A stretch of DNA of 64,000 bases, from the NCBI GenBank assembly GCA_000004695.1, contig CM000151.3:7104001-7168000 (forward strand). The letters are read 5' to 3'. Shown here piece by piece: positions 23,459-61,720 of this stretch. A program made the position numbers and the translations under genes. This DNA comes from Dictyostelium discoideum. Its lineage: Eukaryota. The notes beneath the pieces were generated by a model that did not search any database, was not told where the DNA came from, and saw nothing but the letters and a program-made list of their open reading frames with translations. Position 1 is the first letter of the stretch. The number at the start of each line of letters is the position of its first letter.

Positions 23459-23656
23459 TTTTAAAATTTTAATAGTTTCTTGTTTAAAAATTAGAGTTTG
23501 ATTTAATATTTTTTTTTTCTAATTTGGTTACAATTTATAGTTTTTTTTTTTTCTAAAAAAAAGAATAAAAAAAACAAATAATTTTTTAATTTTATTTTTA
23601 AAATCATACTTTTTGTTTTTTCATTTCTATTTTTTTTATATCAAAAAACTTAAACT

Positions 23657-23667: not shown

Positions 23668-24288
23668 ATTATATTTTTCTATTTGACTTGTTATATTATT
23701 CATATGACTTGTTATAGTAATTATTATTATAAATGGGGCCTTTGGATTTTGAATTATCAAGAATTCTTAAAATAAAAAAGTCTTTAAAAAAAAAAAATAA
23801 AAAAAAAATTATTCATAAAATTAAAAAACTATAAAAACAAAAAATCAATTTTTAAAATATTAATTATAAATCAAAAAATAAAAACATGAGTATTTTCAGT
23901 AAGTATAATTTTTTTTAGAAATATTGTGTAAAATTTGTCATAAATATTTTAAAAATAATAATAAATAATTAATTACAATTATTCCTACAAAATAAATGTT
24001 TTAATAATTAAACCACTTTGTTGATCCCCCTAACATGGTGAATTTTTTAATTTCGAAATTTTTGCTCAAATTTTCCTGGATTTTACAATATTTAAATAAA
24101 TAAAATAAACTAAATTTAAACCCTTTTTTTAAATAAATATAGGTTCATTATCATCATTATCCACTGGTTCTTAATTGGGTGCTTTACATTTTATTTATTT
24201 ATATAACTCTAAAAATAAACCATTTTAAAATTTATTTTTATTATTAATATTTATTTATATTTAAAATTTATTAATATTTAATTTTAAA

Positions 24289-39861: not shown

Positions 39862-40625
39862 ATGACAAACAACAATTTAAATAAAGAAGGTAATTATTTA
39901 TTAAATAAAAATAAAAAAATAAAAAAAAAAATAAAAGTTTAAATTATTAATTTTTTAATTACATATATATGTTTTAATTAGTTAATCATTTAGAAAAAGA
40001 AGCAGTATCAGCATATGATAATACAAAAGAAGCAACAATTAATGCATACAATGCAACAACAAATGCAGTGAGTGATGGTATGAAATATGTTGGTGATTCA
40101 TTATCATCAGCAGTCGAAGTAACAAAAGATGCAACAATCAATATGTATAATGCAACAACTAATGCAGTGAGTGATGGTTATGAATCTTTAAAATCAAAAA
40201 CAAATGAATTAATCAGCAATACTCAAAATGAAAATGAAAATTTAAAAGATGGTGCTTCAAAGAAAATCGAAGAATTAAAAGATAAATCAAGTGAAGTAAA
40301 AGATAATTTAAAGGGAAAAGGTGAAGAACTAGTTGACGATGCTAAAGATGCTGCTCATAATGCTTCAAATAAATTGAATAATGCTAAAGATCAAGTTTCT
40401 GATAAAATGGATAATGTAAAAGATGATATAAAGAAAAAAGGTGAAGAAATAGTTGACAATTCTAAAGATGCTGCCAATAATACTTCAAATAAAATGAATA
40501 ATGTTAAAGATCAAGTTTCTGATAAAATGGAACATGTAAAACATGATATATCAAATAAATACAATGAAACAAAAACAGAAGCTTCCCATAAACTAAATCA
40601 AGCTGCAAATAAAATCGACCAATAA
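39862..40625 (+). CDS. LEA/apolipophorin-like hydrophilic repeat protein, array copy 1 (2 exons, about 223 aa)
   Basis: Exon 1 39862..39889 (MTNNNLNKE plus G; donor GT at 39890) and exon 2 39982..40625. The product continues VNHLEKEAVSAYDNTKEATINAYNATTNAVSDGMKYVGDSLSS... with about 40-aa repeats (KDAAHNASNKLNNAKDQVSDKMDNVKDDIKKKGEEIVD). Confidence 0.65.
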
Positions 40626-40840
40626 TTTTAAAATTAAAAATAAATTAAAGAAAAAAAAAAAGATTTAAAAAAATTAATTACACCTGTATTTATAGATTTT
40701 TATTTTTTTTAAATTTTTTCCAAAATTATCTTTTTTGAAAATCAATGTTTTTTAATTTTTTTTTTTTTTTTTTTAATTTTTAGTGTGAGATTTCCCATCC
40801 AAACTTTTTTTTTTTATTTTTTTTTTTTTTACAAAATAAT

Positions 40841-40924
40841 TATGTGTGCCGGGTTTCGATCCCGGGAATCGGTTAACGAAATGAAGCCCTGAACGTCACG
40901 CAATAACCACTCTGCCACACACTT
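40841..40924 (-). tRNA. tRNA-like gene with a long variable arm (type II; anticodon loop TTCAGGG, so Leu-CAG-like); imperfect stems, possibly a pseudogene
   Basis: The minus strand reads AAGTGTGTGGCAGAGTGGTTATTGCGTGACGTTCAGGGCTTCATTTCGTTAACCGATTCCCGGGATCGAAACCCGGCACACATA. It has A-box TGGCAGAGTGG, a T-arm CCGGG-ATCGAAA-CCCGG, a 16-nt variable arm, one A:A mismatch in the acceptor stem and one C:T mismatch in the anticodon stem. Confidence 0.45.
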
Positions 40925-41277
40925 AATTTTTTTTTTTTTTTTTTTAAATCGAAATTTTTATTATTTTTTTTTTCCAGATTATTTCTACTTAATCTTAGAA
41001 TCTTTGAGTTTTTTGGGAAATAAAAAAATAGTCAACAACCTCTCTTTTATATTAAATGAAAAAAAAAATTTCTAATTAATGGTTTTTAAGTTTAAATTCA
41101 ACATTAATTTTGGCAATCCAAAAAAAAAAAAAAAATTAATTTTTATTATTATTAGAAAAAAAAAAAAAAAATTTTTATTATTATTTTTTATTTAAATTTA
41201 ATTCGTTTATTTAATTTATAATAAAAAGTCGCCCAAATATATTAATGTTTTGTTTTGTTTTTTTTCTTTTTTTTTTT

Positions 41278-41517
41278 TCAATAATTTACAAAGTTTGGTC
41301 TTGTAAAAAATGATGATGCACTTATCAATGCAATTGTATCATTTGATTGATTGATTGAATTATTTAAATTATTTGAGATCGATGAATCACTTTTTGAAGA
41401 TGATTTAAATGAGAATGAAATTAATGATTCTAAATAATTTTTAAAAAAAAAGTTAATTAATAATTATTCATTGGAAAATAAAAAAATTATTGTTTAGAAA
41501 TACATACTGAATAACAT
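41278..41517 (-). CDS. small Ser/Asn-rich protein, MLFK...FFTRPNFVNY family, type-A copy 1 (53 aa)
   Basis: Exon 1 41508..41517 (ATGTTATTCA; donor GTATGT) and exon 2 41278..41429 (acceptor aaattatttag; phase 1). The product is MLFKSLISFSFKSSSKSDSSISNNLNNSINQSNDTIALISASSFFTRPNFVNY. Confidence 0.6.
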
Positions 41518-43001
41518 TTTAGTTTTTATTCTTTATATTAATAGTTTGATATTTAATTTTTAATATTTGTTTCAATTTGATAATGATTATTATTTTTTTT
41601 TTTTTCTATTTATACTTTTTTTTTTTTTACCCCATTTGTTTTTTTTTTTTTTTTTTTTAATTTTATTCTTTTCTAAAAATAACCACACTCTTTATTATAA
41701 TTAAACAATATTAAAAGAGTATTAAAATTAAATTTAAAATTATGTTGTCGACATAAACATTACCTTTTAAAAAATCAAAAATTAAATGTTATCAACATGA
41801 ATGAGATTTATGATTTTGTATTATTATTATTATTATTATTATTATTGGAACAATATTGATATTAATCATTTAAAATTCAAATTAAACCATAGTTTTAATA
41901 ATTATAATTGTTAAAATTATAATTGATATAATTATTAAAACTATGATTTAAAATAAAATAAATAATTTTTTATTTAAGAATAATAAAAGCCTAAATAAAT
42001 AAAAAATTGATTGGATTAATTTCCTTTATTAATTTATTTAATTAAAATAAAATAATTGGTTTTTGGTTTAATGAATTCCTTTATTGATTTTTGTTTGGTT
42101 GGTCGTTTTTAAATATTAATCCACATTGAATAAATAAATTTAAAAATTGGGAAATTATTTAAAGAATTCATATAAATTCTCTAATTAAAATAAAATTTAA
42201 AAACAATAGTTATTATTTTACCGAGATATCATCAAATGAATGTTTTCCAAAATTATAAAAAAAATAAATGTTCATTGTAATTGGATTTAAAAGAGTAGTT
42301 AACTTTGTTTTTTATTTATTTTAATTTTAGTTATTTTTTCAAAAAAACAGTGAGGATTAATTTTTTAAAAAAGAAATGGTAAATTAGAATTTTATCTATT
42401 GAAATGATATCACTTTCAATACATTGAGTTATTTAAAATGATGACATTATTTTTTTAATCATTTGTTTTTTGATTGCTTCATTTATAAATACACCATAAA
42501 TATTCCGTAAAAAACTAATTAATTTTGATAAAAAAAAATGATCTGAATGACATAATTTAAATATAGAAGAATAAATAAAAAAAAAATAATCATTTTTCAA
42601 TGATACTCATGGATTTTATTTTTATTCCCTTTAAAAGATGAGTAATTGAGGATTTTAAATGATTATTTTAATGATGTAAATAATGTTTTCAACTATTATA
42701 TTGAATCAATTTAACAATGATGATAGAATCATACTTTTTTTAGTGTGTAAAATAATAAAAAATATTTAAAAAATAAAAAAAAAAACTTTTTTTAAATCAA
42801 AAGATAATAAAATCATTATCTTGTACTTGTTAGTATCATACTTCTTGATTAAAATTTATTTACTTTATTATTTAACTTGTATGTCAACATAATAATTTTA
42901 CAAAAAAAATTAAATATTCCATATCTCTTGTTTAGGGTTATGTAGTGGTTAAAAATGGTGTAATTATTTAGCGGGGTAAAATAAAAAAAAAGATAAAAAA
43001 A

Positions 43002-43009
43002 AAAAAAAA
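43002..43009 (+). promoter_or_regulatory. TATA box (TATAAATA) about 95 bp upstream of B-type small gene 1
   Basis: gtataaatagaatttt is conserved upstream of all five B copies at the same distance. Confidence 0.4.
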
Positions 43010-43103
43010 AGTATAAATAGAATTTTTATTTTTTTAATTTATTCCAAAATAAAAACCAATTGTTAATTAAATAAATATATATTAAAAAAATCCTAAAAAT
43101 AAA

Positions 43104-43351
43104 ATGTTATTCAGTATGTATTTTAAAAAAAAAAAAAAAAAAAAAAAATTAAAAAACAAAATTCTAATTAATTTATTTTATTATTTATAGAATCAATTAT
43201 TTCATTATCAAATAAATCATCAAATGTTTCATCATCAAAATCATTATTATCAAATGACTCTAATTTAAATTCATTTGATTTTACATGTAATACTGTCTCA
43301 AATAAGAGTTCAACAACATTCTTTACAAGACCAAACTTTGTAAACTATTAA
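43104..43351 (+). CDS. small Ser/Asn-rich protein, MLFK family, type-B copy 1 (56 aa)
   Basis: Exon 1 43104..43113 (ATGTTATTCA; donor GTATGT) and exon 2 43191..43351 (acceptor ttatttatag). The product is MLFKSIISLSNKSSNVSSSKSLLSNDSNLNSFDFTCNTVSNKSSTTFFTRPNFVNY. Confidence 0.6.
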
Positions 43352-44981
43352 AAAAAAAAAAAAAAAATTAAAAATTTTAATTAAAGTACGAACATAAAAA
43401 ACTTATTTATTAAAAATGTACCGACCAAATTTGTAAATAAAATAAAAAAACAATAAAAAACATTTAAAAAAAAAAAAAAAAAAATTTTTTTTTGTTTAAA
43501 TTATTTGTATTTTACTAAAAAAAAAAAAAAAAAATAGAATGAAGTGGATTTTATGATTAATATTTTTTAAATCGATTTTCATTTATTAAACTCTTATATA
43601 AATATAATAATCTATTAAAAATTAAAAAATCTTTTTTTTTTTTTTTATCACATTTTAAAATTATTTATTAATTTAATAAATTTTATTATTGGTATTATTT
43701 TTTTTAATATTAAATTATAAATAAATGATTATTAAATTATTATTATTCATAAGAAAATAATATTATGTTTTGATTTTTTTATAATAAAAAAGGAATAAAT
43801 TATTTAAAAAAATAAAAAATTTTTATTTTGTTGGGTTATATAGTTTTTATAGCCCAATTAAGAATTCATAAGTCATATAGGCCGTGTAGCATTTGTTAAA
43901 TGGACTATAATTATTATATCCCAAATAGTCCTTTTAAAAATTTTACCTGGCTGTGAACATTGTATATTGGGTTCCTTTATTTATTTTTGTTTGGTTGGTA
44001 ATTTCTTTAAAAATATTAATCCATTTTGATCAAATAAATTAAGGAATTGGGAAATATATTAGAGAATTAATTTATATTTTATAATAATTTTATTTTTAAA
44101 TTTATTTTTATTATTTTAAAAAGTTGTCCTCAAATGAAAGTATTTCAAAATTTTTAAAAAAATAATCATTGCAAAAGGAATTTTCTTTAAAAGAGTACTT
44201 TAGTTTTGTTATTAATCTTATTTATATTGATTTTAGTTATTTTAATTATTTTTTAAATAGCCAATGGGATTAGTTTCTTTTTATCTATTGAAATGATCAT
44301 TTTAAATACAATCAATGATTTTATAATGATGATATTATTTGGTCCTTTGTTTTATAATTTCTTCATTTATATATACATCCCTTAAAAATTAAATATTCTT
44401 GATTTAATATATAATCTAATTGATATAATTTAAATAAAAACAAAAAAAAGAAATATAAAAACATCATTTTTCGATGATACTTGTGGGTTATCATTTTTTT
44501 CCCTTTAAAAGATGAGTAATTGAGGACTTTAAATGATTATTTTAATTATGTAAATAATGTTTTCAACTATTTTATTGAATCAATTTAACAATGATGATAG
44601 AATCATATATTTATTTAGTGTCGAAAATAATAAAAAATAAAAAAAAAAAATAAAAAAAAAACTTTTTTAAATCAAAAGATAATGAAATCATAATCTTGTA
44701 CTTGTTAGTATCATACTTCTTGATTAAAATTTATTTACTTTATTATTTAACTTGTATGTCAACATAATAATTTTACAAAAAAATATAATATTCCTTATCT
44801 CTTGTTTAGGGTTCTGTAGTGGTTAAAAATGGGGTAATTATTTAGTGGGGTAAAATAAATAAAAAAAGATAAAAAAAAAATAAAAAAAAAAGTATAAATA
44901 GAATTTTTATTTTTTTAATTTATTCCAAAATAAAAATCAATTGTTAAATAAATAAATATAAATTAAAAAAAACCTAAAAAA

Positions 44982-45229
44982 ATGTTATTCAGTATGTATT
45001 AAATAAAAAAAAAAAAAAAAAATTAAAAAAATAACAAAATTCTAATTAATATATTTTATTATTTTTAGAATCAATTATTTCATTATCAAATAAATCATCA
45101 AATGTTGCATCATCAAAATCATTATTATCAAATGACTCTAATTTAAATTCATTTGATTTTACATGTAATACTGTCTCAAATAAGAGTTCAACAACATTCT
45201 TTACAAGACCAAACTTTGTAAACTATTAA
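44982..45229 (+). CDS. MLFK family type-B copy 2
   Basis: Exons 44982..44991 and 45069..45229. It has the same structure and is near-identical to B1 (NVASSKS variant). Confidence 0.6.
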
Positions 45230-45530
45230 AAAAAAAAAAAAAAACAATTAAAAATTAATTAAAGTGCGAAACATAAAAAAAACTTATTTATTAAAAAGGG
45301 ACCGACCAAATAAAAAAAAAAATTAAAAAAAAAATTTTATTATAAATTTTGTTTAACTTTTTCGTAAATTATTTGTGGATTTTAGTTTTTTTTTTTTTTG
45401 GGCTTTTTCTTTAAATGATTATTTTGTGACTATGATTTATTAAAAAAATTAAAAAAAACAAAAAAAAACATTTTCAAATGAAATTTAAACCATTATAATA
45501 ATATACAACCACTTATTTTTATAAATTTCA

Positions 45531-45564
<34 letters not shown>

Positions 45565-45778
45565 ATAATTATTTTTTATTTGAATAAATAAAATTGTGGT
45601 AAATTTTTTATTACATATTGGTATATAAATAATTTTTTTTAATTGAATTTTAATTAATTATTTTTCATATTTTAAAAAAGATTCAAATAAATAATTTTAT
45701 AATAAAATAAAAAAGAAAGAAAATAATTTATTTGATTTTTTTTTTTTTTTTTTTAATAAAAAATGAAAAAGAAAAAAC

Positions 45779-45786
45779 TATAAATA
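45779..45786 (+). promoter_or_regulatory. TATA box about 95 bp upstream of LEA-like copy 2
   Basis: actataaatagaataaattaaat is conserved upstream of LEA copies 2-6 (also at 47607, 51246, 55032 and 58652). Confidence 0.4.
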
Positions 45787-45873
45787 GAATAAATTAAATT
45801 ATTATTTCAATCAAAAAATATTAAACAAATAAAATTTTAAAAGTAATACTACAAAATAAAGAAATAATAAAAA

Positions 45874-46633
45874 ATGACAAACAACAATTTAAATAAAGAA
45901 GGTTGGTATATAACTACCCCAATATGAAATTTAATTTAATATATAGTTATTAATATAATTTTTTTTTTTTTTAAAATTACAAAATTTAGTTAATCATTTA
46001 GAAAAACAAGCAGTATCAGCATATGATAATACAAAAGAAGCAACAATCAACGCATACAATGCAACAACAAATGCAATGAGTGATGGTATGAAATATGTTA
46101 GTGACTCATTATCATCAGCAGTCGAAGTAACAAAAGATGCAACAATCAATATGTATAATGCAACAACTAATGCAGTGAGTGATGGTTATGAATCTTTAAA
46201 ATCAAAAACAAATGAATTAATCAACAATACTCAAAATGAAAATGAAAATTTAAAAGATGGTGCTTCAAAGAAAATCGAAGAATTAAAAGATAAATCAAGT
46301 GAAGTAAAAGATAATTTAAAGGAAAAAGGTGAAGAACTAGTTGACGATGCTAAAGATGCCGCTCATAATGCTTCAAATAAATTGAATAACGCTAAAGATC
46401 AAGTTTCTGATAAAATGGATAATGTAAAAGACGATATAAAGAAAAAAGGTGAAGAAATAGTTGACAATTCTAAAGATACTGCCAATAATACTTCAAATAA
46501 AATGAATAATGTTAAAGATCAAGTCTCTGATAAAATGGAACATGTAAAACATGATATGTCAAACAAATACAATGAAACAAAAACAGAAGCTGCTCATAAA
46601 CTAAATCAAGCTGCAAATAAAATCGATCAATAA
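45874..46633 (+). CDS. LEA-like repeat protein, array copy 2
   Basis: Exons 45874..45901 and 45990..46633. The frame is open through both exons and the internal ATG is at 46076. Confidence 0.65.
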
Positions 46634-46802
46634 TAAAATTAAATAAAGAAAAAAAAAAAATCCAACATTTAATAGAATAAAAAAAAAAAAAAACAAAATC
46701 AATTCTTATGTTTTATATAAATTTAATTCGTTTATTTAATTTATAATAAAAAGTCGCCCAAATATTTTAATGTTTATAAAGTTTGTTTTTTTTTTTTTTT
46801 TT

Positions 46803-47040
46803 TTAATAATTTACAAAGTTTGGTCTTGTAAAAAACGACGATGCACTTATCATTACAATTGTATCATTTGATTGATTTATTGTATTATTTAAATTGTTAG
46901 AGATCGATGAATCACTTTTTGAATATGATTTTAATGAAAATGAAGTTAATGATTCTAAAAAATTTTAAAAAAAAAAGTTAATTAATAATTTATTCATTGG
47001 AAAAAAAAACTATTATTTAAAAATACATACTGAATAACAT
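46803..47040 (-). CDS. MLFK family type-A copy 2
   Basis: Exons 47031..47040 and 46803..46954. The product is MLFKSLTSFSLKSYSKSDSSISNNLNNTINQSNDTIVMISASSFFTRPNFVNY. Confidence 0.6.
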
Positions 47041-47076
47041 TTTGATTTTTTTTTCTTTATTTATATTAAAAGTTTA

Positions 47077-47176
47077 NNNNNNNNNNNNNNNNNNNNNNNN
47101 NNNNNNNNNNNNNNNNNNNNNNNNNNNNNNNNNNNNNNNNNNNNNNNNNNNNNNNNNNNNNNNNNNNNNNNNNNNN
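47077..47176. other. assembly gap (100 N) inside the tandem array
   Basis: A run of N; the flanks correspond to non-adjacent parts of the repeat unit. Confidence 0.95.
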
Positions 47177-47706
47177 TGACTTTTAATAAATCATTTGATT
47201 TTGAAAAAAAAAAAAAAAATTGTAATAAACTGAAATGTGTACGAGATTTAATGACAATGGGTTTTTAAAATAAAAAATAAAAAAAAAAGGATGATTTCCA
47301 AATGAAAAATTATTAAACAATTATAATAATACAACCTCCTATTTTTATAAATTTACCCCAAAAAAAAAAAAAAAATAAAAAAAAAAAAAAAATTTTTATT
47401 ATTTGAAAAATAAAAAATTATTAATAATTGTGATAATTTTTCAATTACATCATGGTATATAATTAATTTTTTTTTAATTGAATTATTTTTCATATTTTAA
47501 AAAAGATTCAAATAAATAATTTTATAATAAAATAAAAAAGAAAGAAAATAATTTATTTGATTTATTTTTTTTTTTTTTTTTTTTTAAAAAATGAAAAAGA
47601 AAAAACTATAAATAGAATAAATTAAATCATTATTTCAATCAAAAAATACCCAAACAAATAAAATTAAAAAGTAATACTACAAAATAAAGAAATAAGAAAA
47701 TAAAAA

Positions 47707-48462
47707 ATGACAAACAACAATTTAAATAAAGAAGGTTGGTATTGAACTAATCCAATATGAAATATATTTTAAAATATTAATAAAATTTTTTATTTATTTT
47801 CAAAATTACAAAATTTAGTTAATCATTTAGAAAAACAAGCAGTATCAGCATATGATAACACAAAAGAAGCAACAATCAATGCATACAATGCAACAACAAA
47901 TGCAATGAGTGATGGTATGAAATATGTTGGTGATTCATTATCATCAGCAGTCGAAGTAACAAAAGATGCAACTATCAATATGTATAATGCAACAACTAAT
48001 GCAGTGAGTGATGGTTATGAATCTTTAAAATCAAAAACAAATGCATTAATCAACAATACTCAAAATGAAAATGAAAATTTAAAAGATGGTGCTTCAAAGA
48101 AAATCGAAGAATTAAAAGATAAATCAAGTGAAGTAAAAGATAATTTAAAGGGAAAAGGTGAAGAACTAGTTGACGATGCTAAAGATGCTGCTCATAATGC
48201 TTCAAATAAATTAAATAACGCTAAAGATCAAGTTTCTGATAAAATGGATAATGTAAAAGACGATATAAAGAAAAAAGGTGAAGAAATAGTTGACGATGCT
48301 AAAGATACTGCCAATAATGCCTCAGATAAATTGAATAATGTTAAAGATCAAGTCTCTGATAAAATGGAACATGTAAAACATGATATGTCAAACAAATACA
48401 ATGAAACAAAAACAGAAGCTGCTCATAAACTAAATCAAGCTGCAAATAAAATCGATCAATAA
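47707..48462 (+). CDS. LEA-like repeat protein, array copy 3
   Basis: Exons 47707..47734 and 47819..48462. Confidence 0.65.
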
Positions 48463-48616
48463 TAAAATTTTAAAACTAAAAGTAAAAAAAAAAATCCAAT
48501 AAATTGTATAAAAAAAAAAAATTATTATATCAATTCTTATGTTTTTATATAAATTTAATTCGTTTATTTAATTTATAATTATAAAAAGTCGCCCAAATAG
48601 TTTAATTTTTTTTTTT

Positions 48617-48856
48617 TTAATAATTTACAAAGTTTGGTCTTGTAAAAAATGATGATGTACTTTTCATAACAATTGTATCATTTGATTGATTGATTGAAAT
48701 ATTTAAATTGTTTGAGATCGATGAATCACTTTTTAATGATGATTTTAATGAAAATGAAATTAATGATTCTAAAAAATTTTTAAAAAAAAAGTTAATAATT
48801 TATTCATTGGAAAAAAAAAAAAAAAATATTGTTTAAATATACATACTGAATAACAT
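48617..48856 (-). CDS. MLFK family type-A copy 3
   Basis: Exons 48847..48856 and 48617..48768. Confidence 0.6.
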
Positions 48857-50410
48857 TTTAATTTTTTTTCTTTTTTTATATTAATAGTTAAATATTTAAT
48901 TTTTTATATTCTTTTTATTTTGATAATGATTATTATTTTTTTTTTTTCTATTTATACTTTTTTTTTTACCCCATTTGTTTTTTTTTTTTTTTTTTTTTTT
49001 TAATTTTATTCCTTTTTAAAATAATTAAACAAATGAAAAGAGTATAACAATTTAAATTAAAATTATGTTGTTGACATAAACATTACCTTGTAAAATATCA
49101 AACGATATATGTTATCAACATGTATGAGATTTATTATTATATGTTATTATTATTATTATCATTATGTTTTTTCAATGTCATTATTTAATTTTAAAATAAA
49201 CCAAAGTTTTAATAATAATATTTATAGTTTTTTAATAATTTAATTATACATAATATTGATTTTTCATTTTTTTCTTTTATAAATTTTATATAAATTTAAT
49301 ATTTTAGAATTATAAAAACCAAAATAAATCAAAAAATTGCACGTGTGGTTGTATCAATTTCTTTTTTCTAGAACAATTAATTGTTTGGAATGTATACTAG
49401 ATTCCTTTATTTTCTTTTGTTTGATTAGAAATTGTTTTAAAATATCAATCCACATTGAACAAATAAATTTTAAAATTGGGAAATTAATTAGGGAATTAAT
49501 ATTTTAAATATATTTAAAAAATAAAATTTTAAAAAAAAAAATAATTTTACCAAGTTGTCCTCTACGAAATTTATATAAAAATAAAAATTCATTGTAATTG
49601 GAATTTTATAAGAGTAGTTTATTTTGTTTTTTATCTTATTTATTTTATTTTATTGATTTTTGTTATTTTTTCAAAATACCGATGAGGATATGTTTTTTAA
49701 AAAAGAAATGTTATATTAGAATTATCTATTGAAATGATATATTTCAATACAATCAATAATTTAAAATGATAATATATTTTTTAATCTTTGTTTTTAATAT
49801 TCATTTATTAATATATCATAAACAATCCTAAAAATTACCTATGTTTGATTAAAAAATAATCTATATGACATAATTTTAAAATAAAAAGAATAAAAACATC
49901 ATTTTTCAGTGATACTCATGGATTTTCATTTTTTTCCCTTTAAAAGATGAGTAATTGAGGATTTTAAATGATTATTTTAATGATGTAAATAATATTTTCA
50001 ACTATTTTATTGAATCAATTTAACAATGATGATAGAATCATACATTTATCCAGTGTATAAAATAATTAAAATTATATAAAAAATAAAAAAACAAACTTTT
50101 TTTTAAATCAAAAGATATAAAATCATTATCTTGTACTTGTTAGTATCATACTTCTTGATTAAAATTTATTTACTTTATTATTTAACTTGTATATCAACAT
50201 AATAATTTTACAAAAAAAATAAAATATTCCATATCTCTTGTTTAGGGTTCTGTAGTGGTTAAAAATGGGGTAATTATTTAGTGGGGTAAAATAAAAAAAA
50301 AGAAAAAAAAAAAAAAAAAAAAAAAAAAGTATAAATAGAATTTATATTTTTTTAATTTATTCCAAAATAAAAATCAATTGTTAATTAAAAAAATAAATCC
50401 TAAAAATAGA

Positions 50411-50651
50411 ATGTTATTCAGTATGTATATTTATAAAAATAAAAAAATTTAGTAAACAAAATCCTAATTAATTTATTTTATTATTTATAGAATCAATTAT
50501 TTCATTATCAAATAAATCATCAAATGTTGCATCATCAAAATCATTATTATCAAATGACTCTAATTTAAATTCATTTGATTTTACATGTAATACTGTCTCA
50601 AATAAGAGTTCAACAACATTCTTTACAAGACCAAACTTTGTAAATTATTAA
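50411..50651 (+). CDS. MLFK family type-B copy 3
   Basis: Exons 50411..50420 and 50491..50651. Confidence 0.6.
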
Positions 50652-50997
50652 AAAAAAAAAAAAAAATTAAAAAAATTAATTAAAGAACGAATCATAAAAA
50701 AAACTTATTTATTAAAAAGGGACCGACCAAATGTATTAAATAAAATAAAACATTAAAAAATAATTTAAAAAAAAAATTATATTATCGTAATTTTGTGTAA
50801 TTTTTCATAAATCATTTGAGATTTTGTAAAAAAAAAAAAAAAAAATTAGAATTGATCAACTTAATTGTGTATGAGATTTAAGACAATGGATTGTTAAAAA
50901 TATATAAAAATAAAAACAAAAAGGATGATTTCCAAATGAAAAAATTATTAAACCATTATAATAAAAAAACATCCACCTATTTTTATAAATTTCCCCC

Positions 50998-51028
<31 letters not shown>

Positions 51029-51345
51029 TATTATTTGAAAAAATAAAAAATTATTAATAATTGTGATAATTTTTTTTATTACATCATGGTATATAATTAA
51101 TTTTTTTTTAATTGAATTTTAAATAATTATTTTTCATATTAAAAAAGATTCAAATAAATAATTTTAAAATAAAATAAAAAAGAAAGAAAATAATTTATTT
51201 GATTTATTTTTTTTTTTTTTTTTTATAAAATGAAAAAGAAAAAACTATAAATAGAATAAATTAAATTATTATTTCAATCAAAAAATACCCAAACAAATTA
51301 AATTAATAAGTAATACTACAAATTAAAGAAATAAAAAAATAAAAA

Positions 51346-52107
51346 ATGACAAACAACAATTTAAATAAAGAAGGTTGGTATATAACTACTCCAATATGAA
51401 ATTTAATTTAATATATAGTTATTAATATAATTTTTTTTTTATTTTCAAATTTATAAAATTTAGTTAATCATTTAGAAAAACAAGCAGTATCAGCATATGA
51501 TAATACAAAAGAAGCAACAATCAACGCATACAATGCAACAACAAATGCAATGAGTGATGGTATGAAATATGTTAGTGATTCATTATCATCAGCAGTCGAA
51601 GTAACAAAAGATGCAACTATCAATATGTATAATGCAACAACTAATGCAGTGAGTGATGGTTATGAATCTTTAAAATCAAAAACAAATGAATTAATCAACA
51701 ATACTCAAAATGAAAATGAAAAGTTAAAAGATGGTGCTTCAAAGAAAATCGAAGAATTAAAAGATAAATCAAGTGAAGTAAAAGAAAATCTAAAAGAAAA
51801 AGGTGAAGAACTAGTTGACGATGCTAAAGATGCCGCTCATAATGCTTCAAATAAATTGAATAACTCTAAAGATCAAGTTTCTGATAAAATGGATAATGCA
51901 AAAGACGTAATTAAGAAAAAAGGTGAAGAAATAGTTGACGATTCTAAAGATACTGCCAATAATACTTCAAATAAAATGAATAATGTTAAAGATCAAGTTT
52001 CAGATAAAATGGAACATGTAAAACATGATATATCAAATAAATACAATGAAACAAAAACAGAAGCTGCTCATAAACTAAATCAAGCTGCAAATAAAATCAA
52101 CCAATAA
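51346..52107 (+). CDS. LEA-like repeat protein, array copy 4
   Basis: Exons 51346..51373 and 51464..52107. Confidence 0.65.
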
Positions 52108-52193
52108 TAAAATTTTAAAACTAAAAATTAAATAAAAAAAAAAGATTTAAAATAATTAACTACCACAAAGACCAATTTTTAATATCAGTAATC

Positions 52194-52229
<36 letters not shown>

Positions 52230-52347
52230 AACAATAAATTGTTTTTAAAAAAAAAAAAAATTATTATTATTATCTATTTTTATTTTTTTTATATAAATTT
52301 AATTCGTTTATTTAATTTATAATAGAATGTCGCCCAATATTTAAATG

Positions 52348-52374
<27 letters not shown>

Positions 52375-52380
<6 letters not shown>

Positions 52381-52614
52381 ATTTACAAAGTTTGGTCTTG
52401 TAAAAAATGATGATGCACTTATCATTGCAATTGTATCATTTGATTGATTGATTGAATTATTTAAATTGTTTGAGATCGATGAATCACTTTTTGAAGATGA
52501 TTTTAATGAAAATGAAATTAATGATTCTAAATAATTTTAAAAAAAAAAAAGTTAATAATTAATTCATTGGAAAAAAAAAAAATTACTGTTTTAGAAATAC
52601 ATACTGAATAACAT
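52375..52614 (-). CDS. MLFK family type-A copy 4
   Basis: Exons 52605..52614 and 52375..52526. Confidence 0.6.
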
Positions 52615-52905
52615 TTTATTTTTTCTTTTTATATTAATAGTTTAATATTTAATTTTTTAAATTCGTTTTAATTTGATAATGATTATTTTTTTTTTTTCTA
52701 TTTATACTTTTTTTTTTTACCCCCTTTGTTTTTTTTTTTTTTAATTTTTCTTTTCTAGAAATAACCACACTCTTTATTAAAATTAAACAATATTAAAAGA
52801 GTATTAATAAAATTAAATTTAAAATTGTGTTGTCGACATAAACATTACCTTTTAAAAAATCAAAAGATATATATGTTATCAACATGTATGAGATTTATGA
52901 TTTTA

Positions 52906-52941
<36 letters not shown>

Positions 52942-54213
52942 TTTTATTATTTAAATATTAATTATTTTAAAATAAACTATAGTTTTAAAAATTATAATTA
53001 TAGTTTTTTAATAATTCAACATAATATACAATAAAAATTAATATGATTTTTTTGTTTTTTTTCTTTTTTATATTTTATATAATTTTATATTTTAGAATAA
53101 TAAAAACCAGAATAAATTAGAAAATTGATTGTATGAATTTTCTTTTTTAATTATTTCACTAAAATTGAAAAATTAATTGTTTGGTTAGAATTCCTTTTTT
53201 TATTTTTGTTTGGTTAGAAAATGTTTTTAAAATACAAATCCACATTGGTCAAATAAATTTAGAAATTAGGAAATTAATTAGAGAATTTATATATTTAAAA
53301 TAAATTTTATTAAAAATAATTATTTTATACAGTGGCCCTCAAACGAAAGTTTTTTAAATTATTAAAAAATAAATATTCATTGCAATTGGATTTAAAAGAG
53401 TAGTTTATTTTGTTTCTAATTTAACTTATTTTTTTTATTTTGACTTTTGTCATTTTTCAATATACCGATGAGCATTGGTTTTAAAAAAAGAAATGGTAAA
53501 TTAGAATTTTATCTATTGAAATGATATCATTTTCAATACAATCAATAATTTTAAAATGATGAAATTATTTTTTTTATCCTTTGTTTGTAATTCTTCATTT
53601 ATAAATACATCATAAATAATCCCTAAAAAATTAACTAATTTTGATCAAAAAAATGACATAATCTTAAATAAAAAAAATAAAAAAAAGAAAAAAAACATCA
53701 TTTTTCAATGGTACTCATGGATTTTTTATTTTTATTCCCTTTAAAAGATGAGTAATTGAGGATTTTAAATGATTATTTTAATGATGTAAATAATGTTTTC
53801 AACTATTTTATTGAATCAATTTAACAATGATGATAGAATCATACTTTTTAAATGTATAAAATAAAAATAAAAATTTAAAAAATAAAAAAACAAACTTTTT
53901 TTAAATCAAAAGATAATAAAATCATTATCTTGTACTTGTTAGTATCATACTTCTTGATTAAAATTTATTTATTTTATTATTTAACTTGTATGTCAACATA
54001 ATAATTTTACAAAAAATAAAATATTCCATATCTCTTGTTTAGGGTTCTGTAGTGGTTAAAAATGGGGTAATTATTTAGTGGGGTAAAATAAAAAAAAAAG
54101 ATAAAAAAAAAAATAAAAAAAAAGTATAAATAGAATTTTTATTTTTTTAATTTATTCCAAAATAAAAATCAATTGTTAAATAAATAAATATAAATTAAAA
54201 AAAACCTAAAAAA

Positions 54214-54465
54214 ATGTTATTCAGTATGTATTTTTTATATAAAAAAAAAAACAAATTAAAAAAAAAAAACAAAATTTAATAAACAATTTCTAATTAATTT
54301 ATTTTATTATTTTTAGAATCCATTATTTCATTATTAAATAAATCATCAAATGTTGTTTCATCATCAAAATCAAATGACTGTAATATTAATTCATTTGATT
54401 CAACATGTAATACTGTCTCAAATAAGAGTTCAACAACATTCTTTACAAGACCAAACTTTGTGAAC

Positions 54466-54471
<6 letters not shown>
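54214..54471 (+). CDS. MLFK family type-B copy 4 (54 aa; 6-nt shorter variant)
   Basis: Exons 54214..54223 and 54317..54471. The product is MLFKSIISLLNKSSNVVSSSKSNDCNINSFDSTCNTVSNKSSTTFFTRPNFVNY. Confidence 0.55.
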
Positions 54472-54513
<42 letters not shown>

Positions 54514-54788
54514 AAAAAAATTAAAGTACGAACTTATTTATTAAAAAGGGACCGACCAATATAAAAAATAAAAAAAACAATAAAAATTAGAAATTTTGTT
54601 TGACTTTTCATAAATCATTTGTAAATTAGTAAAAAAATAAAAAAATGCTAATTTAACTGTAATGTGTATGAGTTAAATTTATTCAATGACTATGAGTTGT
54701 TAAAAAATAAATACCAAGGATCATTTTCAAATGAATAAATATTAAACCATTATAATAATATAACACCTATTTTAATAAAAAAAAAAAA

Positions 54789-54819
<31 letters not shown>

Positions 54820-55327
54820 ATTATTTATTATTTGAATAAAATTATAATTGTGGTAATTTAATTACATCTTGGTATATAATTGTTATGTACTTAATTTTTT
54901 TTAATTGAATTTTATATAATTTTTTTCATATTTTGAATGATTCAAATAAATAATTTTAAAATAAAATAAAAAAGAAAGAAAATAATTTATTTGATTTATT
55001 TTTTTTTTTTAAAAAATGAAAAAGAAAAAACTATAAATAGAATAAATTAAATCATTTTTTTTATCAAAAATTATTAAACAAATAAAATTAAAAAGTAATA
55101 CTACAAATTAAAGAAATAAAAAAATGACCAACAACAATTTAAATAAAGAAGGTTGGTATATAACTTATTCAATATGAAATATATTTTTAACAAATATAGT
55201 TATTAATATAATTTTTATATTTTCAAAATGATTAAACTTAGTTAATCATTTAGAAAAAGAAGCAGCATCAGTATATGATAATAAAAAAGAAGCAACAATT
55301 AATGCATATAATGCAACAACAAATGCA

Positions 55328-55852
55328 ATGAGTGATGGTATGAAATATGTTGGTGATTCATTATCATCAGCAGTCGAAGTAACAAAAGATGCAACTATCA
55401 ATATGTATAATGCAACAACTAATGCAGTGAGTGATGGTTATGATTTTTTAAAATCAAAAACAAATGAATTAATCAGCAATACTCAAAATGAAAATGAAAA
55501 TTTAAAAGATGGTGCTTCAAAGAAAATCGAAGAATTAAAAGATAAATCAAGTGAAGTAAAAGATAATTTAAAGGAAAAAGGCGAAGAACTAGTTGACGAT
55601 GCTAAAGATGCTGCTCATAATGCTTCAAATAAATTGAATAACGCTAAAGATCAAGTTTCTAATAAAATGGATAATGTAAAAGATGATATAAAGAAAAAAG
55701 GCGAGGAAATAGTTGACGATGCTAAAGATGCTGCCAATAAAGCTTCTGATAAAATGGAACATGTAAAACATGATATATCAAATAAATACAATGAAAAAAA
55801 AACAGAAGCTGCTCATAAACTAAATCAAGCTGCAAATAAAATCGACCTATAA
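55328..55852 (+). CDS. LEA-like repeat protein, array copy 5 (174 aa from the internal ATG; one 40-aa repeat fewer)
   Basis: The upstream mini-exon (55124..55151, ATGACCAAC...) and intron are present. A 1-nt insertion (gaaaaagaaAgc at about 55255..55262) shifts the N-terminal extension out of frame and gives a TGA after 12 codons. The open frame therefore starts at ATG 55328. Confidence 0.5.
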   Translation: MSDGMKYVGDSLSSAVEVTKDATINMYNATTNAVSDGYDFLKSKTNELISNTQNENENLKDGASKKIEELKDKSSEVKDNLKEKGEELVDDAKDAAHNASNKLNNAKDQVSNKMDNVKDDIKKKGEEIVDDAKDAANKASDKMEHVKHDISNKYNEKKTEAAHKLNQAANKIDL

Positions 55853-56081
55853 TAAAATTTTAAAACAAAAAATTAAATAAAAAAAAAGATTTTAAAAAAT
55901 TAATTACTTTTATTTAACCAACAATCTTATCTAAAAAAAAAAAAACCAAAAATAAATTGTATAAAAAGAAAAAAAAAATAATTTTATCAATTTTTATTTT
56001 TTATTATTAATTTAATTCGTTTGTTTAATTTATAATAGAATGTCGCCCAATATTTTAATGTTTCAAAAGTTTTTTTTTTTT

Positions 56082-56328
56082 TTAATAATTTACAAAGTTT
56101 GGTCTTGTAAAAAATGATGATGTACTTTTCATAACAATGGTATCATTTGTTTGATTTATTGAATTATTTAAATTGTTTGAGATCGATGAATCACTTTTTG
56201 AAGATGATTTAAATGAAAATGAAATTAATGATTCTAAATAATTTAAAAAAAAAAAAAGTTAATAATTAATTCATTGGAAAAAAAAAATAAAAAAAATATA
56301 TTGTTTAAAAATACATACTGAATAACAT
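56082..56328 (-). CDS. MLFK family type-A copy 5
   Basis: Exons 56319..56328 and 56082..56233. Confidence 0.6.
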
Positions 56329-57839
56329 TTTATATTTTCTTTTTTATATTAATAGTTTAATTTTTAATTTTTATTATTCGTTTTAATTTGATAATGATTA
56401 TTTATATTTTTTTTCTATTTATACTTTTTTTTTTTGACCCTGTTTTTTTTGTTTTTTTTTTAATTTTATTCTTTTCTAGAAATAACCACACTCTTTATTA
56501 AAATTAAACAATATTAAAAGAGTGTTAAAATTAAATTTAGAATTGTGTTGTCGACATAAACATTACCTTTTAAAAAATCAAAAGATATGTTATCAACATG
56601 TATTAGTTTATGAATTTAGGTTATTATTATGGAAACAATATTGTTTTAATATTAATTATTTTATTTTCAAAATAAACCATAGTCTTAATAATTATTTTTA
56701 TAGTTTTTTATTATTTAATTTAAAAATATATTTATTTTTATGATTTTTATTTTAGAATAAATAAAAACCAAAATAAAAATATATCAATTTTTTTTTTTAA
56801 ATTTTTTAAGTAATATGGAACAATTAATTGTTTGGAATGGATATTAGATTCATTTATTGATTTTTGTTTGGTAAGTAATTGTTTTTAAAATATAAATCCA
56901 CTTTGATCAAATAAATTTAGAAATAGGGAAATAAATTAGAGAATTAATATAAATTTTAATAATAAAATTTTAAAATAATTATTTTACAAAGATGCCCTCA
57001 AATAAAATTTTTCAAAATTATTAAAAAATAAATATTCATTGCAATTGAAATTAAAAGAGTAGTTTTATTTTATTTTTATTGTTTACTTATATTGATTTTT
57101 GATTTTTTTTTATAAAAGAAATGGTAAATTAGAGTTCTACCTTTTGAAATGAAACCACTTTAAATACAATCGAAAATTTAAAAATGATATTGTTTTTTAA
57201 TCATTTTTTTAATTTCATCATTTATAAATACATCATAAATAATCCCTAAAAAATTTTGATCAAAAAAATAATCTGAATGACATAATTTATAAATAAAAAA
57301 TAAAAAAAAAGAATAAAAACATCATTTTTCAATGATACTCATGGATTTTTTATTTTTATTCCCTTTAAAAGATGAGTAATTGAGGATTTTAAATGATTAT
57401 TTTAATGATGTAAATAATGTTTTCAACTATTTTATTGAATCAATTTAACAATGATGATAGAATCATACTTTTTTTAGTGTGTAAAATAATAAAAAATATT
57501 TAAAAAATAAAAAACAAACTTTTTTTAAATCAAAAGATAATAAAATCATTATCTTGTACTTGTTAGTATCATACTTCTTGATTAAAATTTATTTACTTTA
57601 TTATTTAACTTGTATGTCAACATAATAATTTTACAAAAAAATAAAATATTCCATATCTCTTGTTTAGGGTTCAATAGTGGTTAAAAATGGGGTAATTATT
57701 TAGTGGGGTAAAAAAAATAAAAATATAAAAAAAAAATAAAAAAAAAAAGTATAAATAGAATTTTTATTTTTTAATTTATTCCAAAATAAAAATCAATTGT
57801 TTATTAAATAAATATAAATTAAATAATCCTAAAAATAAA

Positions 57840-58080
57840 ATGTTATTCAGTATGTATTAAAAAAAAAAAAAAAAAATTTAATAAAAAAAATTCTAATTAA
57901 TTTATTTTATTATTTATAGAATCAATTATTTCATTATCAAATAAATCATCAAATGTCTCATCATCAAAAACATTATTATCAAATGACTCTAATTTAAATT
58001 CATTTGATTTAACATGTAATACTGTCTCAAATAAGAGTTCTACAACATTCTTTACAAGACCAAACTTTGTAAACTATTAA
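57840..58080 (+). CDS. MLFK family type-B copy 5
   Basis: Exons 57840..57849 and 57920..58080. Confidence 0.6.
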
Positions 58081-58757: not shown

Positions 58758-59633
58758 ATGACAAACAACAATTTAAATAAAGAAGGTTGGTATACAATGT
58801 TATGAAATATAATTTAATATATAGTTATTAATAAAAATTTTTTTATTTATTAATAATTACAAAATTTAGTTAATCGTTTAGAAAAACAAGCAGTATTAGT
58901 ATATGATAATACAAAAGAAGCAACAATCAATGCATACAATGTCACAACAAACGCAATGAGTGATGGTATGAAATATGTTAGTGATTCATTATCATCAGCA
59001 GTCGAAGTAACAAAAGATGCAACTATCAATATGTATAATGCAACAACTAATGCAGTGAGTGATGGTTATACATCTTTAAAATCAAAAACAAGTGAATTAA
59101 TCAGCGATACTCAAAATGAAAATGAAAATTTAAAAGATGGTGCTTCAAAGAAAATCGAAGAATTAAAAGATAAATCAAGTGAAGTAAAAGATATTTTAAA
59201 GGAAAAAGGTGAAGAACTAGTTGAAGATGCTAAAGATGCTGCTCATAATGCTTCAAATAAATTGAATAATGCTAAAGATCAAGTTTCTGATAAAATGGAT
59301 AATGTAAAAAATGATATAGAGAAAAAAGGTGACGATGCTAAAGATGCTAAAGATGCTGCCAATAATGTTTCAAATAAAATGAATAATGTTAAAGATCAAG
59401 TTTCTGATAAAATGGATAATATTAAAGACGATATAAAGAAAAAAGGTAAAGAATTAGTTGACGATGCTAAAGATGCTGCCAATAATGCTTCAAATAAATT
59501 GAATAACGCTAAAGATCAAGTTTCAGATAAAATGGAACATGTAAAACATGATATATCAAACAAATACAATGAAACAAAAACAGAAGCTGCTCCTAAACTA
59601 AATCAAGCTGCAAATAAAATCGACCAACAATAA
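58758..59633 (+). CDS. LEA-like repeat protein, array copy 6 (longest; 225 aa from the internal ATG, three 40-aa repeats)
   Basis: Exons 58758..58785 and 58870..59633. Confidence 0.65.
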
Positions 59634-59691: not shown

Positions 59692-61720
59692 TTAATAAAA
59701 TCTAATAAATTTTGAAACGAAATCACTTGTTAATTTATTAATAAATTCAGTATTTTCAATTGAAATATAAATTGATTCTAATGAAATTGGTAAAGAATTT
59801 GAGAGAGTTGTTTGATCTTGATAAAAACGTTGATTCTTAATTATTAATTTTTTTAATTTATTTGGAAGTAAATTTGGTTCAAATGATATATTTTTATATT
59901 TTGGACCAAATGTTAAAGAGGTAATATTTGGAGGTAAATGACCAATTGGTATTTTCTTTTCAAAAAAACCTAAATATAATGATTGAAGTGAATGGAAATT
60001 TGAAAGATCTGGTAATTCTCCTTTAATACTAGACAATTCTAAATGAGTTATTGATTTTGAAGGTATAGCTGAGAGTGGAAATGGTTTATCATATTCAGAA
60101 CCTAATACTAATGATTTTAAATTTGTATGTAAAAATAAATCATTTGGTAATGTTTGATTAAACTTTGCACCAAACTTTATTGATTCAAGTGTTGATGGTA
60201 TCATTTCTTTATTAAGTTTTCTATTAAACCGATTTCCCAAAATCAATACCTTCAATTGCTTTGGTAATGAATTTTCATTAAATTCTTTATCATAACTTGA
60301 ACCCATTGTAAGTGAAGTGAGATTCTTTGGTAGAATTGTTGTTTCTAATGGTGAATGTAATTCTTGATTAAAATCATTTCCAACTTTATGGAAAAATATT
60401 ATTTGAGAATTGATTTGGTGTTATTACTTGATTGAAGTAATTATCAAATTGAATCGATGTTATTGACCCTCCAATATCTTTTTTAGCATTAAAATCTCTG
60501 GAATTCATTTCTGAATTAAATTCTCTGGAAAGTGTAGTTACTGAATTTGGTATTGCCCCATACTCAATCACACCTCCATAATCATTCTCCAATATTAATG
60601 ATTTTAATGAATTCTTTGAATATAATTGATCAATAATTTTAATATCTTGTGAAAATCCATTACCAAACTCTAAATGTTTAATTGCTTCAGGTACCAAACT
60701 TTCTTTATTAAATGTACCTTCATCATCATCATCATCTTTACAATTAGTTGATATTTTATTATTTACAAATGGTTGGTCAAATTCATCACCAAATTTAATA
60801 CTTGTTACTGATTGAGGAATTATATTTTTATTTAATGCTTGATTAAATGATTCACTAAAAATAATTGTTTTTACTGTATTTGGTATTGAGTTTTCATTTA
60901 ATGTTGCACTGAATTCATATTGAAATTCTAATTCCTCTAAATCTGATGGTAATAATCCAAAACTTAAATTCCCTCTTTCATTATAATCATACTCTATTGA
61001 ATTAATATAACTTGAATATTTATAATTTAATAATGAATCATATGTCATATATAATTTCCTATTTAAATGAATATTATATAATCTAAGATGAAATAATATA
61101 TTATTTTTAATATATTTATTTTTCCAAACTTTTTCAAATAACATTGTATTATTGTTATTATTATTATTATTATTATTTTTGTTATTCTCATTATCATTAT
61201 TATTAATACTAATACTCGAATGTTTATCATCTTCGTGAAAAAGTTTGATCTTTTTATTTATTTTAAAATTATTATTTTTATAAATTTCAGGAAAGTTTTT
61301 ATTATTTTCAATTATTATTTGAAGTGAATGATACTCTAAACTATTATTATTATTTAAAGTATTTATATTTATTATTTCATTGAAATTATTATTTTGGTGA
61401 TGAAATGATTTAAAATGGTTATATAATGAATTATACTGTTTTATATTTAATCCTTTCATCATTTGGTATCTTTTTTCAATAAAATCTCCACTAATATTTT
61501 AAATTTTTAATAAAAATTAATAGGAGAGAGTGGATATATAATAATTATAAAACACATACTCTTGATTGGAAGAGACTATGATCGAGTTTACCCTACTAAA
61601 GTAATTTAATAATTGATCTATGGAGATATAAACTCCATTGATTGATAATATTAATAAACTCTTTAACAATGTTTCCTCTTTGCTAATTAGAGAATCAAAA
61701 ATTGATTTCTCCATTGCCAT
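59692..61720 (-). CDS. FNIP-repeat protein (Dictyostelid-specific about 22-aa FNIP repeats), 2 exons plus an apparent frameshift
   Basis: Exon 1 61560..61720 (MAMEKSIFDSLISKEE...; donor GTATGT; phase 2) and exon 2 from 61490 downward (GDFIEKRYQMMKGLNIKQYN...KVWKNKYIKNNILFHLRLYN...). FNIP repeats (IPNSVTTL..FG..FNQ) run through 59692. The reading frame changes by +1 inside a T5 run near 60386..60392, between track ORFs 60386..61462 and 59692..60306. Confidence 0.6.

Follow-up and report, generated by a model that had tools for sequence, protein, structure and literature searches.

We analyzed a 64,000-nucleotide (nt) stretch of the Dictyostelium discoideum genome (strain AX4, chromosome 2; GenBank assembly GCA_000004695.1, contig CM000151.3, positions 7,104,001 to 7,168,000 of the forward strand; hereafter the window) and focused on ten short features whose predicted proteins all end in FFTRPNFVNY. 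Taken as a whole, these features are probably independent two-exon protein-coding genes of a lineage-restricted family. The family is an uncharacterised relative of the hssA/sigN (hssA/2C/7E) genes by architecture. We consider the ten features to be independent, selected, protein-coding transcription units because of the evidence from reading frames, splice sites, ratios of nonsynonymous to synonymous substitution rates (dN/dS), TATA boxes and G-rich promoter boxes taken together.

In the window, which has a GC content of 15-30%, the 16-mer ATGTTATTCAGTATGT occurs ten times exactly and without mismatches, while 0.21 occurrences were expected and none of 100 shuffles reached ten. Every copy begins with a 10-nt exon 1, ATGTTATTCA, encoding Met-Leu-Phe plus 1 nt; next comes a phase-1 intron with a GTATGT donor, and joining exon 1 to the sequence after the next TAG/AATC acceptor (the slash marks the junction) gave an open frame in all ten cases. 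This bears out the original prediction of ten copies with this first exon and donor; its intron range of 70-80 nt was too narrow, the introns measuring 70-93 nt in the window and up to 113 nt in relatives. Five copies are A-type (minus strand, 53 residues, starting at 41517, 47040, 48856, 52614 and 56328) and five are B-type (plus strand, 54-56 residues, starting at 43104, 44982, 50411, 54214 and 57840). FFTRPNFVNY followed by a stop codon terminates all ten spliced proteins, and the A and B types have both termini in common and unlike middles, as claimed before. The C-terminal DNA motif, too, has exactly ten occurrences in the window, and a family hidden Markov model run on the six-frame translation found no extra copy there. 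Together the genes span exactly 41278-58080:

41278-41517, minus strand: A1 gene, DDB_G0276699; exon 1 41517-41508, intron 78 nt, exon 2 41429-41278; 53 residues.
43104-43351, plus strand: B1 gene, DDB_G0276701; exon 1 43104-43113, intron 77 nt, exon 2 43191-43351; 56 residues.
44982-45229, plus strand: B2 gene; exon 1 44982-44991, intron 77 nt, exon 2 45069-45229; 56 residues.
46803-47040, minus strand: A2 gene, DDB_G0276723; exon 1 47040-47031, intron 76 nt, exon 2 46954-46803; 53 residues.
48617-48856, minus strand: A3 gene, DDB_G0276749; exon 1 48856-48847, intron 78 nt, exon 2 48768-48617; 53 residues.
50411-50651, plus strand: B3 gene; exon 1 50411-50420, intron 70 nt, exon 2 50491-50651; 56 residues.
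52375-52614, minus strand: A4 gene; exon 1 52614-52605, intron 78 nt, exon 2 52526-52375; 53 residues.
54214-54471, plus strand: B4 gene, DDB_G0276741; exon 1 54214-54223, intron 93 nt, exon 2 54317-54471; 54 residues.
56082-56328, minus strand: A5 gene, DDB_G0276737; exon 1 56328-56319, intron 85 nt, exon 2 56233-56082; 53 residues.
57840-58080, plus strand: B5 gene; exon 1 57840-57849, intron 70 nt, exon 2 57920-58080; 56 residues.

Eight of the ten spliced proteins are identical to GenBank/UniProt models of strain AX4 that carry the names 'hypothetical protein' or 'Uncharacterized protein' (DDB_G0276699, 0276701, 0276703/0276751, 0276723, 0276737, 0276741 and 0276749). The B2 protein is filed under both DDB_G0276703 and DDB_G0276751, and the B3 protein is identical to it. 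The micro-exon model of A4 is absent from the deposits, where an alternative AX4 model of 62 residues (DDB_G0276743) stands for this ninth copy, and the exact B5 protein had no match in the public collection. Because of the eight exact matches, the earlier statement that no open reading frame (ORF) finder reports these genes is wrong. The genes are already catalogued and uncharacterised, and calling the family novel overreaches. We found no paper in the literature that names these gene identifiers or the peptide motif.

To define the extent of the family, an exhaustive profile search covered 1.84 billion representative proteins and returned 12 cluster representatives, all from Dictyostelium. 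These comprise the A and B clusters, one protein from Dictyostelium cf. discoideum and four from Dictyostelium firmibasis, among others. A word-indexed homology search missed everything except the A-type cluster and a single partial paralog; the remainder came from the profile search. Six further loci lie on AX4 chromosome 2 (DDB_G0276649, 0276655, 0276639, 0276643, 0276467 and 0275641), of which DDB_G0276467 is Swiss-Prot entry Q86HV3, bringing AX4 to at least 16 loci. At the genomic level, D. cf. discoideum has five B-type copies in tandem (locus L001), D. firmibasis has 15 copies or more in a stretch of about 40 kb (loci L003 and L004), and a second D. discoideum strain has a rearranged array (locus L002) of A, B and LEA-like genes, the latter being described below. 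When metagenomes were scanned with the conserved C-terminal codons, no match was obtained. Judging from these searches, only D. discoideum and the two taxa closest to it, D. cf. discoideum and D. firmibasis, carry the family.

The family also exposes inconsistent annotation. Some deposited models, from D. firmibasis and in one case from AX4, lack the 10-nt exon or run on; the D. firmibasis models are:

L003 4889-5812: KAK5577869, 101 residues.
L004 8358-8563: KAK5577920, 44 residues.
L004 10001-10135: KAK5577921, 41 residues.

Applied uniformly to the misannotated genes, including DDB_G0276743, the micro-exon model gives proteins of 51-60 residues that start with MLFKS or MLSKS.

The original prediction had named loss of the open frame in other copies or species as evidence against coding; among 35 genomic copies from the three taxa, 33 keep exon 1 (ATGTTAT[TC][CTA]A), a GT donor, the TAG/AATC acceptor and the open frame, and one of the two exceptions is cut by a contig end. 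The kept copies use GTATGT, GTAGGT or GTAAGT as donor, and the TTC/TTT difference in exon 1 is synonymous. The acceptor and the C-terminal motif are separated by one of seven different lengths, in frame in 33/33 copies; intron lengths are spread over the three remainders modulo 3 (13/10/10), and the two alternative frames are interrupted by stops in every one of the 33 copies. Whole-gene dN/dS values range from 0.32 to 0.67. Over the C-terminal 11 codons dN/dS falls to 0.14 with a dS of 0.44; codons vary there (TTC 17, TTT 11; AAC 26, AAT 6; GTA, GTT or GTG for Val) and the residues are nearly fixed. The motif Thr, Arg, Pro, Asn and Phe as well as Lys4 are invariant in 25 sequences. Even diverged copies from the three taxa, with unalignable flanks and middles of about 50% identity or less, keep the start, splice sites, frame, TATA box and C-terminal motif.

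The TATA-type box lies 5' of the ATG in all 32 copies that could be assessed and mostly reads GTATAAATAG with an oligo-A run before it. Its position is -81 to -110 in 29 of them, and three D. firmibasis copies have it at -59, -75 and -122. Among the window copies, nine have a readable promoter (that of A2 is truncated by an assembly gap), with the oligo-A run and GTATAAATAG about 81-100 nt before the ATG. G-rich boxes of the GTGGGGT type, usually one or two, occur within 70 nt 5' of the TATA box in 26 of the 32 copies versus a background of 19%. The promoters of sigN genes contain G-boxes related to GBF sites (PMC2257962), and because the G-box/TATA promoters of the family resemble them, the analogy suggests that these genes would be expressed in post-aggregative development, as sigN genes are. 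The searched portion of Additional file 7 of PMC4403905 lists a divergent paralog, DDB_G0276467, as differentially expressed in development.

The A-B intergenic region holds nothing besides the B promoter block and is conserved among recent duplicates and not across species. About 450 nt before the B genes (42590-43103, and likewise at B3, B4 and B5) are 82-98% identical among units, more than the B introns are, and the identity of this block with D. cf. discoideum is no more than about 69%; the similarity therefore reflects recent duplication or gene conversion rather than deep constraint. On the 3' side, a sense-strand SCGAC motif occurs within 120 nt past the stop codon in 25 of 33 copies versus a background of 2.3%, and it was absent from upstream and intron controls. 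It could be an element of the 3' untranslated region (UTR). The motif lies 20-105 nt past the stop as GGGCGAC in A copies, GGGACCGACC in B copies and GGCCGAC-like sequences in D. firmibasis (for example at 41229-41235 on the minus strand and 45297-45306 on the plus strand of the window, and also in L001, L003 and L004). An ACGAAT element usually stands beside it, and it precedes AATAAA signals. In Rfam and tRNA searches, the window yielded no structured RNA to account for the motif. We also considered whether the 3' flanks of A and B might be inverted versions of one another; both CGAC and ACGAAT are sense-strand motifs in A and B alike, which led us to reject this.

We then compared the family with the hssA/sigN genes. 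That family has 96 members, which encode small Ser/Gly/Cys-rich proteins; 89 of the 96 have a 13-nt first-exon ORF, and the proteins carry Cys residues near the C terminus described as 'cysteine knot-like' (Vicente et al. 2008, PMC2257962). The window contains hssA-like comparators:

22405-22708, plus strand: hssA-like gene; 13-nt exon 1 (MTLF plus 1 nt), phase-1 intron, 72-residue Ser/His/Pro/Cys-rich product.
23174-23459, minus strand: second hssA-like gene; 13-nt exon 1 ATGACCCTATTTT followed by GTAAGT (MTLF plus 1 nt), phase-1 intron.
23886-24180, plus strand: third hssA-like micro-exon gene; ATGAGTATTTTCA followed by GTAAGT (MSIF plus 1 nt), exon 2 meeting a stop.

The first exons and phase-1 introns of the first two had been correctly described; the third looks like a decayed copy of the adjacent hssA-like genes. 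The protein of the first scored 20.7 bits against PF05710 ('Coiled'), just under the gathering score of 21.4 bits.

Both groups of genes are small (43-118 residues), Dictyostelium-restricted and multi-copy, with many members on chromosome 2 in tandem or inverted arrays. Each consists of two exons, the first being a micro-exon that ends 1 nt past Leu-Phe, separated by a short phase-1 intron. Both encode similar Ser-rich leaders, MTLFSSISSISN in hssA/sigN and MLFKSLISLSNK in the FFTRPNFVNY family, and have G-rich boxes 5' of the TATA box. The first exon usually measures 13 nt in hssA/sigN and 10 nt here because a Thr codon is missing, so the gene structure usual in hssA/sigN is present in variant form (MLF plus 1 nt, phase-1 intron); the accepted members sigN132, sigN183 and sigN176 also carry a 10-nt exon 1. 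The original prediction went further and placed the genes in a divergent clade of the hssA/2C/7E superfamily. If the two families were homologous over the whole gene, the proteins would act likewise, as prestalk-expressed small proteins associated with vesicles or matrix. We regard this as possible but doubtful. The micro-exon layout, the three sigN members with a 10-nt exon 1, the G-box style akin to that described in PMC2257962 and the presence of two hssA-like genes 18 kb away in the window all speak for it. So does the similarity of the first 14 or so residues, which exceeds what composition gives: in the register set by the intron, the leaders have 5.6 identities over 14 positions versus 2.6 +/- 0.8 for permuted sequences (P about 2.5e-4). 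Of 30 registers this one ranks first and is also the choice of hhalign, for a segment that is short and of low complexity and whose hhalign match did not reach significance.

None of 25 family members and none of four window proteins matched PF05710 at threshold, the lone trace having an E value of 7.5. Other Pfam matches in these searches with 4 and then 25 members (ThsB_TIR, Prion and others, with E values of 0.01 or weaker) were dismissed as noise. For profile comparison we built an alignment of seven sequences, namely six PF05710-annotated HssA/B-like proteins, retrieved with an approximate hssA-style probe that served solely as bait, and P0022, a relative of the window hssA-like gene. The search with the protein of that window gene had returned a single cluster. 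Against this alignment hhalign gave a probability of 1.8% (E = 0.028) and aligned only 17 residues (2-18 on 3-19). The A and B proteins contain 0% Gly and 0-2% Cys, in contrast to the Gly/Ser/Cys-rich body and C-terminal Cys cluster of hssA proteins, and have instead an Asn/Ser-rich middle and an invariant end not seen in them. The published table of 96 genes has no chromosome 2 entry with 53-56 residues and a 10-nt exon 1. UniProt names true members 'HssA/B-like protein N' and the present proteins 'Uncharacterized protein', the name that Swiss-Prot Q86HV3 also bears, without a family assignment. Hence, the shared layout and N-terminal similarity stand, and membership in hssA/2C/7E is not supported, given the PF05710 and hhalign results, the paucity of Gly and Cys and the absence from the published table. 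The most economical reading of the sequences is that the FFTRPNFVNY family would have its 5' module (micro-exon, intron and leader) in common with hssA/sigN, joined to an unrelated body. We infer that this module would share its origin with that of hssA/sigN and serve the same purpose as there, in targeting or expression.

The encoded product is a basic protein of about 6 kDa (isoelectric point 9.5) that is rich in Ser (27-28%), Asn (15-16%) and Phe (11%) and free of Gly. It consists of a conserved 12-residue leader (MLFKSLISLSNK; 77% identity), a fast-evolving low-complexity middle (about 50%) and a nearly invariant C-terminal decapeptide, FFTRPNF[V/I]N[Y/F], that is under strong purifying selection (87% over the last 11 residues). 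AlphaFold2, run on a 16-sequence alignment, predicted no secondary structure, with a mean predicted local distance difference test score (pLDDT) of 60.6 and a predicted template modelling score (pTM) of 0.15; residues 41-50 formed the best block. From this model and the alignments, the product is most likely a disordered peptide of about 6 kDa whose invariant decapeptide would be its functional motif, as the pattern of conservation over the three modules implies. Most likely the decapeptide would act as a short linear motif, held on a disordered tether, and dock onto one conserved partner. Alternatively, and with lower probability, it might be released as a peptide.

Plant CLE and IDA precursors are short, multi-copy proteins with a clear hydrophobic signal peptide and a conserved motif of about 10-13 residues near the C terminus. 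The FFTRPNFVNY proteins are unrelated to them and resemble them in architecture alone (conserved N-terminal leader, variable middle and conserved C-terminal motif); by hydropathy they show no clear hydrophobic signal peptide. By analogy, the family could encode precursors of a secreted, processed signalling peptide, in which the N terminus directs export, the middle serves as propeptide and FFTRPNFVNY is released as the signal. The three-module pattern (with constraint strongest over the last 10 residues), the many near-identical gene copies that are common for peptide precursors and several N-x-S/T sequons in the middle are all consistent with such a role, as is the observation of sigN proteins, which have a similar leader, in vesicles (PMC2257962). 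We nevertheless think it unlikely. In a hydropathy analysis (Kyte-Doolittle), every hydrophobic segment was too short for a classical signal peptide or membrane helix; the best 9-residue window reaches about 1.8 and the best 15-residue mean is at most 0.8, values that would be weak for a signal peptide. No conserved dibasic or other obvious cleavage site precedes the motif, and the parts of the proteome supplements that were searched contain no detection. A still bolder proposal is a long shot, namely that the FFTRPNF peptide is a new clade-specific signal or ligand and that the MLF/MTLF micro-exon with its leader is a reusable 5' cassette, placed on more than 100 small-protein bodies for common unconventional targeting or expression.

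The ten genes are interspersed with six LEA-like genes, and the array has the following further features:

39862-40625, plus strand: LEA1 (YtxH, PF12732); two exons, 28-nt exon 1, 223 residues by conceptual splice.
45874-46633, plus strand: LEA2, 223 residues.
47077-47176: assembly gap of 100 N inside the array, where a B copy before LEA3 would be expected.
47707-48462, plus strand: LEA3, 223 residues.
51346-52107, plus strand: LEA4, 223 residues.
55124-55852, plus strand: LEA5, 212 residues.
58758-59633, plus strand: LEA6, 263 residues, with an extra internal repeat.

The order is RCC1-like gene, LEA1, A1, B1, B2, LEA2, A2, 100-N gap, LEA3, A3, B3, LEA4, A4, B4, LEA5, A5, B5, LEA6 and FNIP-repeat gene. 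The array is bounded on the left by the RCC1-repeat gene (37543-39483, plus strand) and on the right by two FNIP-repeat genes (59692-61462, minus strand). Like the small genes, the LEA-like genes have a short exon 1 (28 nt, MTNNNLNKE plus 1 nt), and their repeat number varies (212, 223 and 263 residues). None of the conceptually spliced LEA-like proteins had an exact match in the public collection, and the deposited AX4 models must therefore differ.

This gene order confirms that B copies precede a LEA-like gene and share its orientation, and that A copies follow it and converge on it. Pairs had been claimed around every LEA gene; the full arrangement, with B reading toward the LEA-like gene and A converging on it, is present at LEA2, LEA4 and LEA5 only. 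LEA1 lacks a B copy, LEA6 lacks an A copy, B1 and B2 are in tandem, and the B copy missing before LEA3 coincides with the gap at 47077-47176, which makes the true copy number and order of units there uncertain. The array consists of a tandemly amplified unit of about 3.7 kb with irregular edges and this one assembly gap. The unit of B, LEA-like gene and convergent A was amplified in tandem in the D. discoideum lineage, and for this reason the small genes flank LEA-like genes here. In D. cf. discoideum no LEA gene lies within 20 kb of the five tandem B copies, and in D. firmibasis none lies near the family copies, ruling out an obligatory pairing. The second D. discoideum strain (L002; GCA_054859355.1, JBTAPG010000054.1, 1-15400) has a convergent B-A pair with no LEA gene between. 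The arrays of the relatives and this pair indicate that the pairing in the window stems from co-amplification rather than from necessity. Between D. discoideum strains the structure of the array is polymorphic. L002 also includes an A copy that has lost its stop codon and reads through to 79 residues, and two large ORFs inside the array, one with a Phage_integrase (tyrosine recombinase, DIRS-like) domain.

The small genes and the YtxH/LEA-like genes have in common that they are co-amplified in the unit of about 3.7 kb and that the products of both are of low complexity and probably disordered. They differ in that their sequences are unrelated, that the LEA-like products are charged, repeat-helical proteins of 212-263 residues, and that the small genes occur without LEA-like genes in related taxa. 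A functional coupling would mean that both encode co-expressed desiccation or spore proteins, or that the LEA transcript is regulated by the A transcript through overlapping 3' ends or transcriptional interference. Convergent A and LEA stops are separated by only 154-267 nt in four of five units, close enough for their 3' UTRs to meet, and by 652 nt in the first. The same unit is repeated in two D. discoideum strains, and several neighbouring DDB_G02766xx-02767xx genes are developmentally regulated according to the parts of the expression lists searched. Such a coupling is quite improbable given the arrays without LEA genes in D. cf. discoideum and D. firmibasis and the LEA-less B-A pair in one D. 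discoideum strain; a purely antisense role would also leave the protein-level selection on the small ORFs unexplained.

Two tRNA-related observations were made in the window. The LEA1-A1 spacer (40626-41277), 652 nt long versus 154-267 nt in other units, contains a GC-rich tRNA-like island (40840-40925, minus strand) that ARAGORN calls as an 86-nt tRNA-Leu(CAG); its 7-bp acceptor stem is perfect, it contains A/B-box-like segments, and it had no Rfam tRNA match even at E <= 1. Given the length of the spacer, the island might be inserted sequence or a relic of a tRNA. A tRNA-Ala(AGC) at 18699-18771 (plus strand) was called by both Rfam and ARAGORN.

Several points weigh against our view of the ten features as protein-coding genes with a functional C-terminal motif. 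Whole-gene dN/dS between paralog types is 0.5-0.67, which means that the middle of the protein is weakly constrained. The copies share descent, so that P values for enrichment overstate their independence. The link between the G-boxes and GBF comes from resemblance to the description in PMC2257962 and to the consensus, and the step to a linear-motif function is one that we infer. The ten array copies were absent from the parts searched of the developmental RNA-seq lists (PMC4403905), of the cell-type RNA-seq supplements and of the life-cycle proteome supplements, and there is no cDNA-like contig on record that encodes the exact spliced proteins. These absences from expression and proteome lists are weak evidence because near-identical copies map ambiguously and trypsin would leave only peptides that are either very short or about 38 residues long. 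The features might not be genes at all and instead be chance or decaying frames in a recently amplified tandem repeat, with deposited models that are gene-predictor artefacts; the lack of transcript and peptide matches in the searched records fits this, as does the 90-95% identity of within-array copies over exons, introns and flanks alike, by which in-array conservation says little, yet it is highly improbable and largely refuted already by the deeply diverged copies in three taxa with start, splice sites, frame, TATA box and C-terminal motif retained, by exon lengths that are in frame in 33/33 copies next to random intron lengths, and by the low dN/dS at the C terminus.

Overall, the original sequence observation was essentially right, and the claims of hssA membership, novelty and a fixed LEA pairing overreach. 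Our analysis changes no established picture and is of moderate interest to Dictyostelium specialists and ordinary otherwise. If our reading is correct, the two-exon genes would constitute a second, unrecognised family of micro-exon small proteins in Dictyostelium beside hssA/sigN, and the sharply conserved C-terminal motif would provide an experimental handle on it. The comparison also suggests that the hssA-type leader and intron may be a separable module found among otherwise unrelated small proteins, which would bear on how taxon-restricted genes originate.

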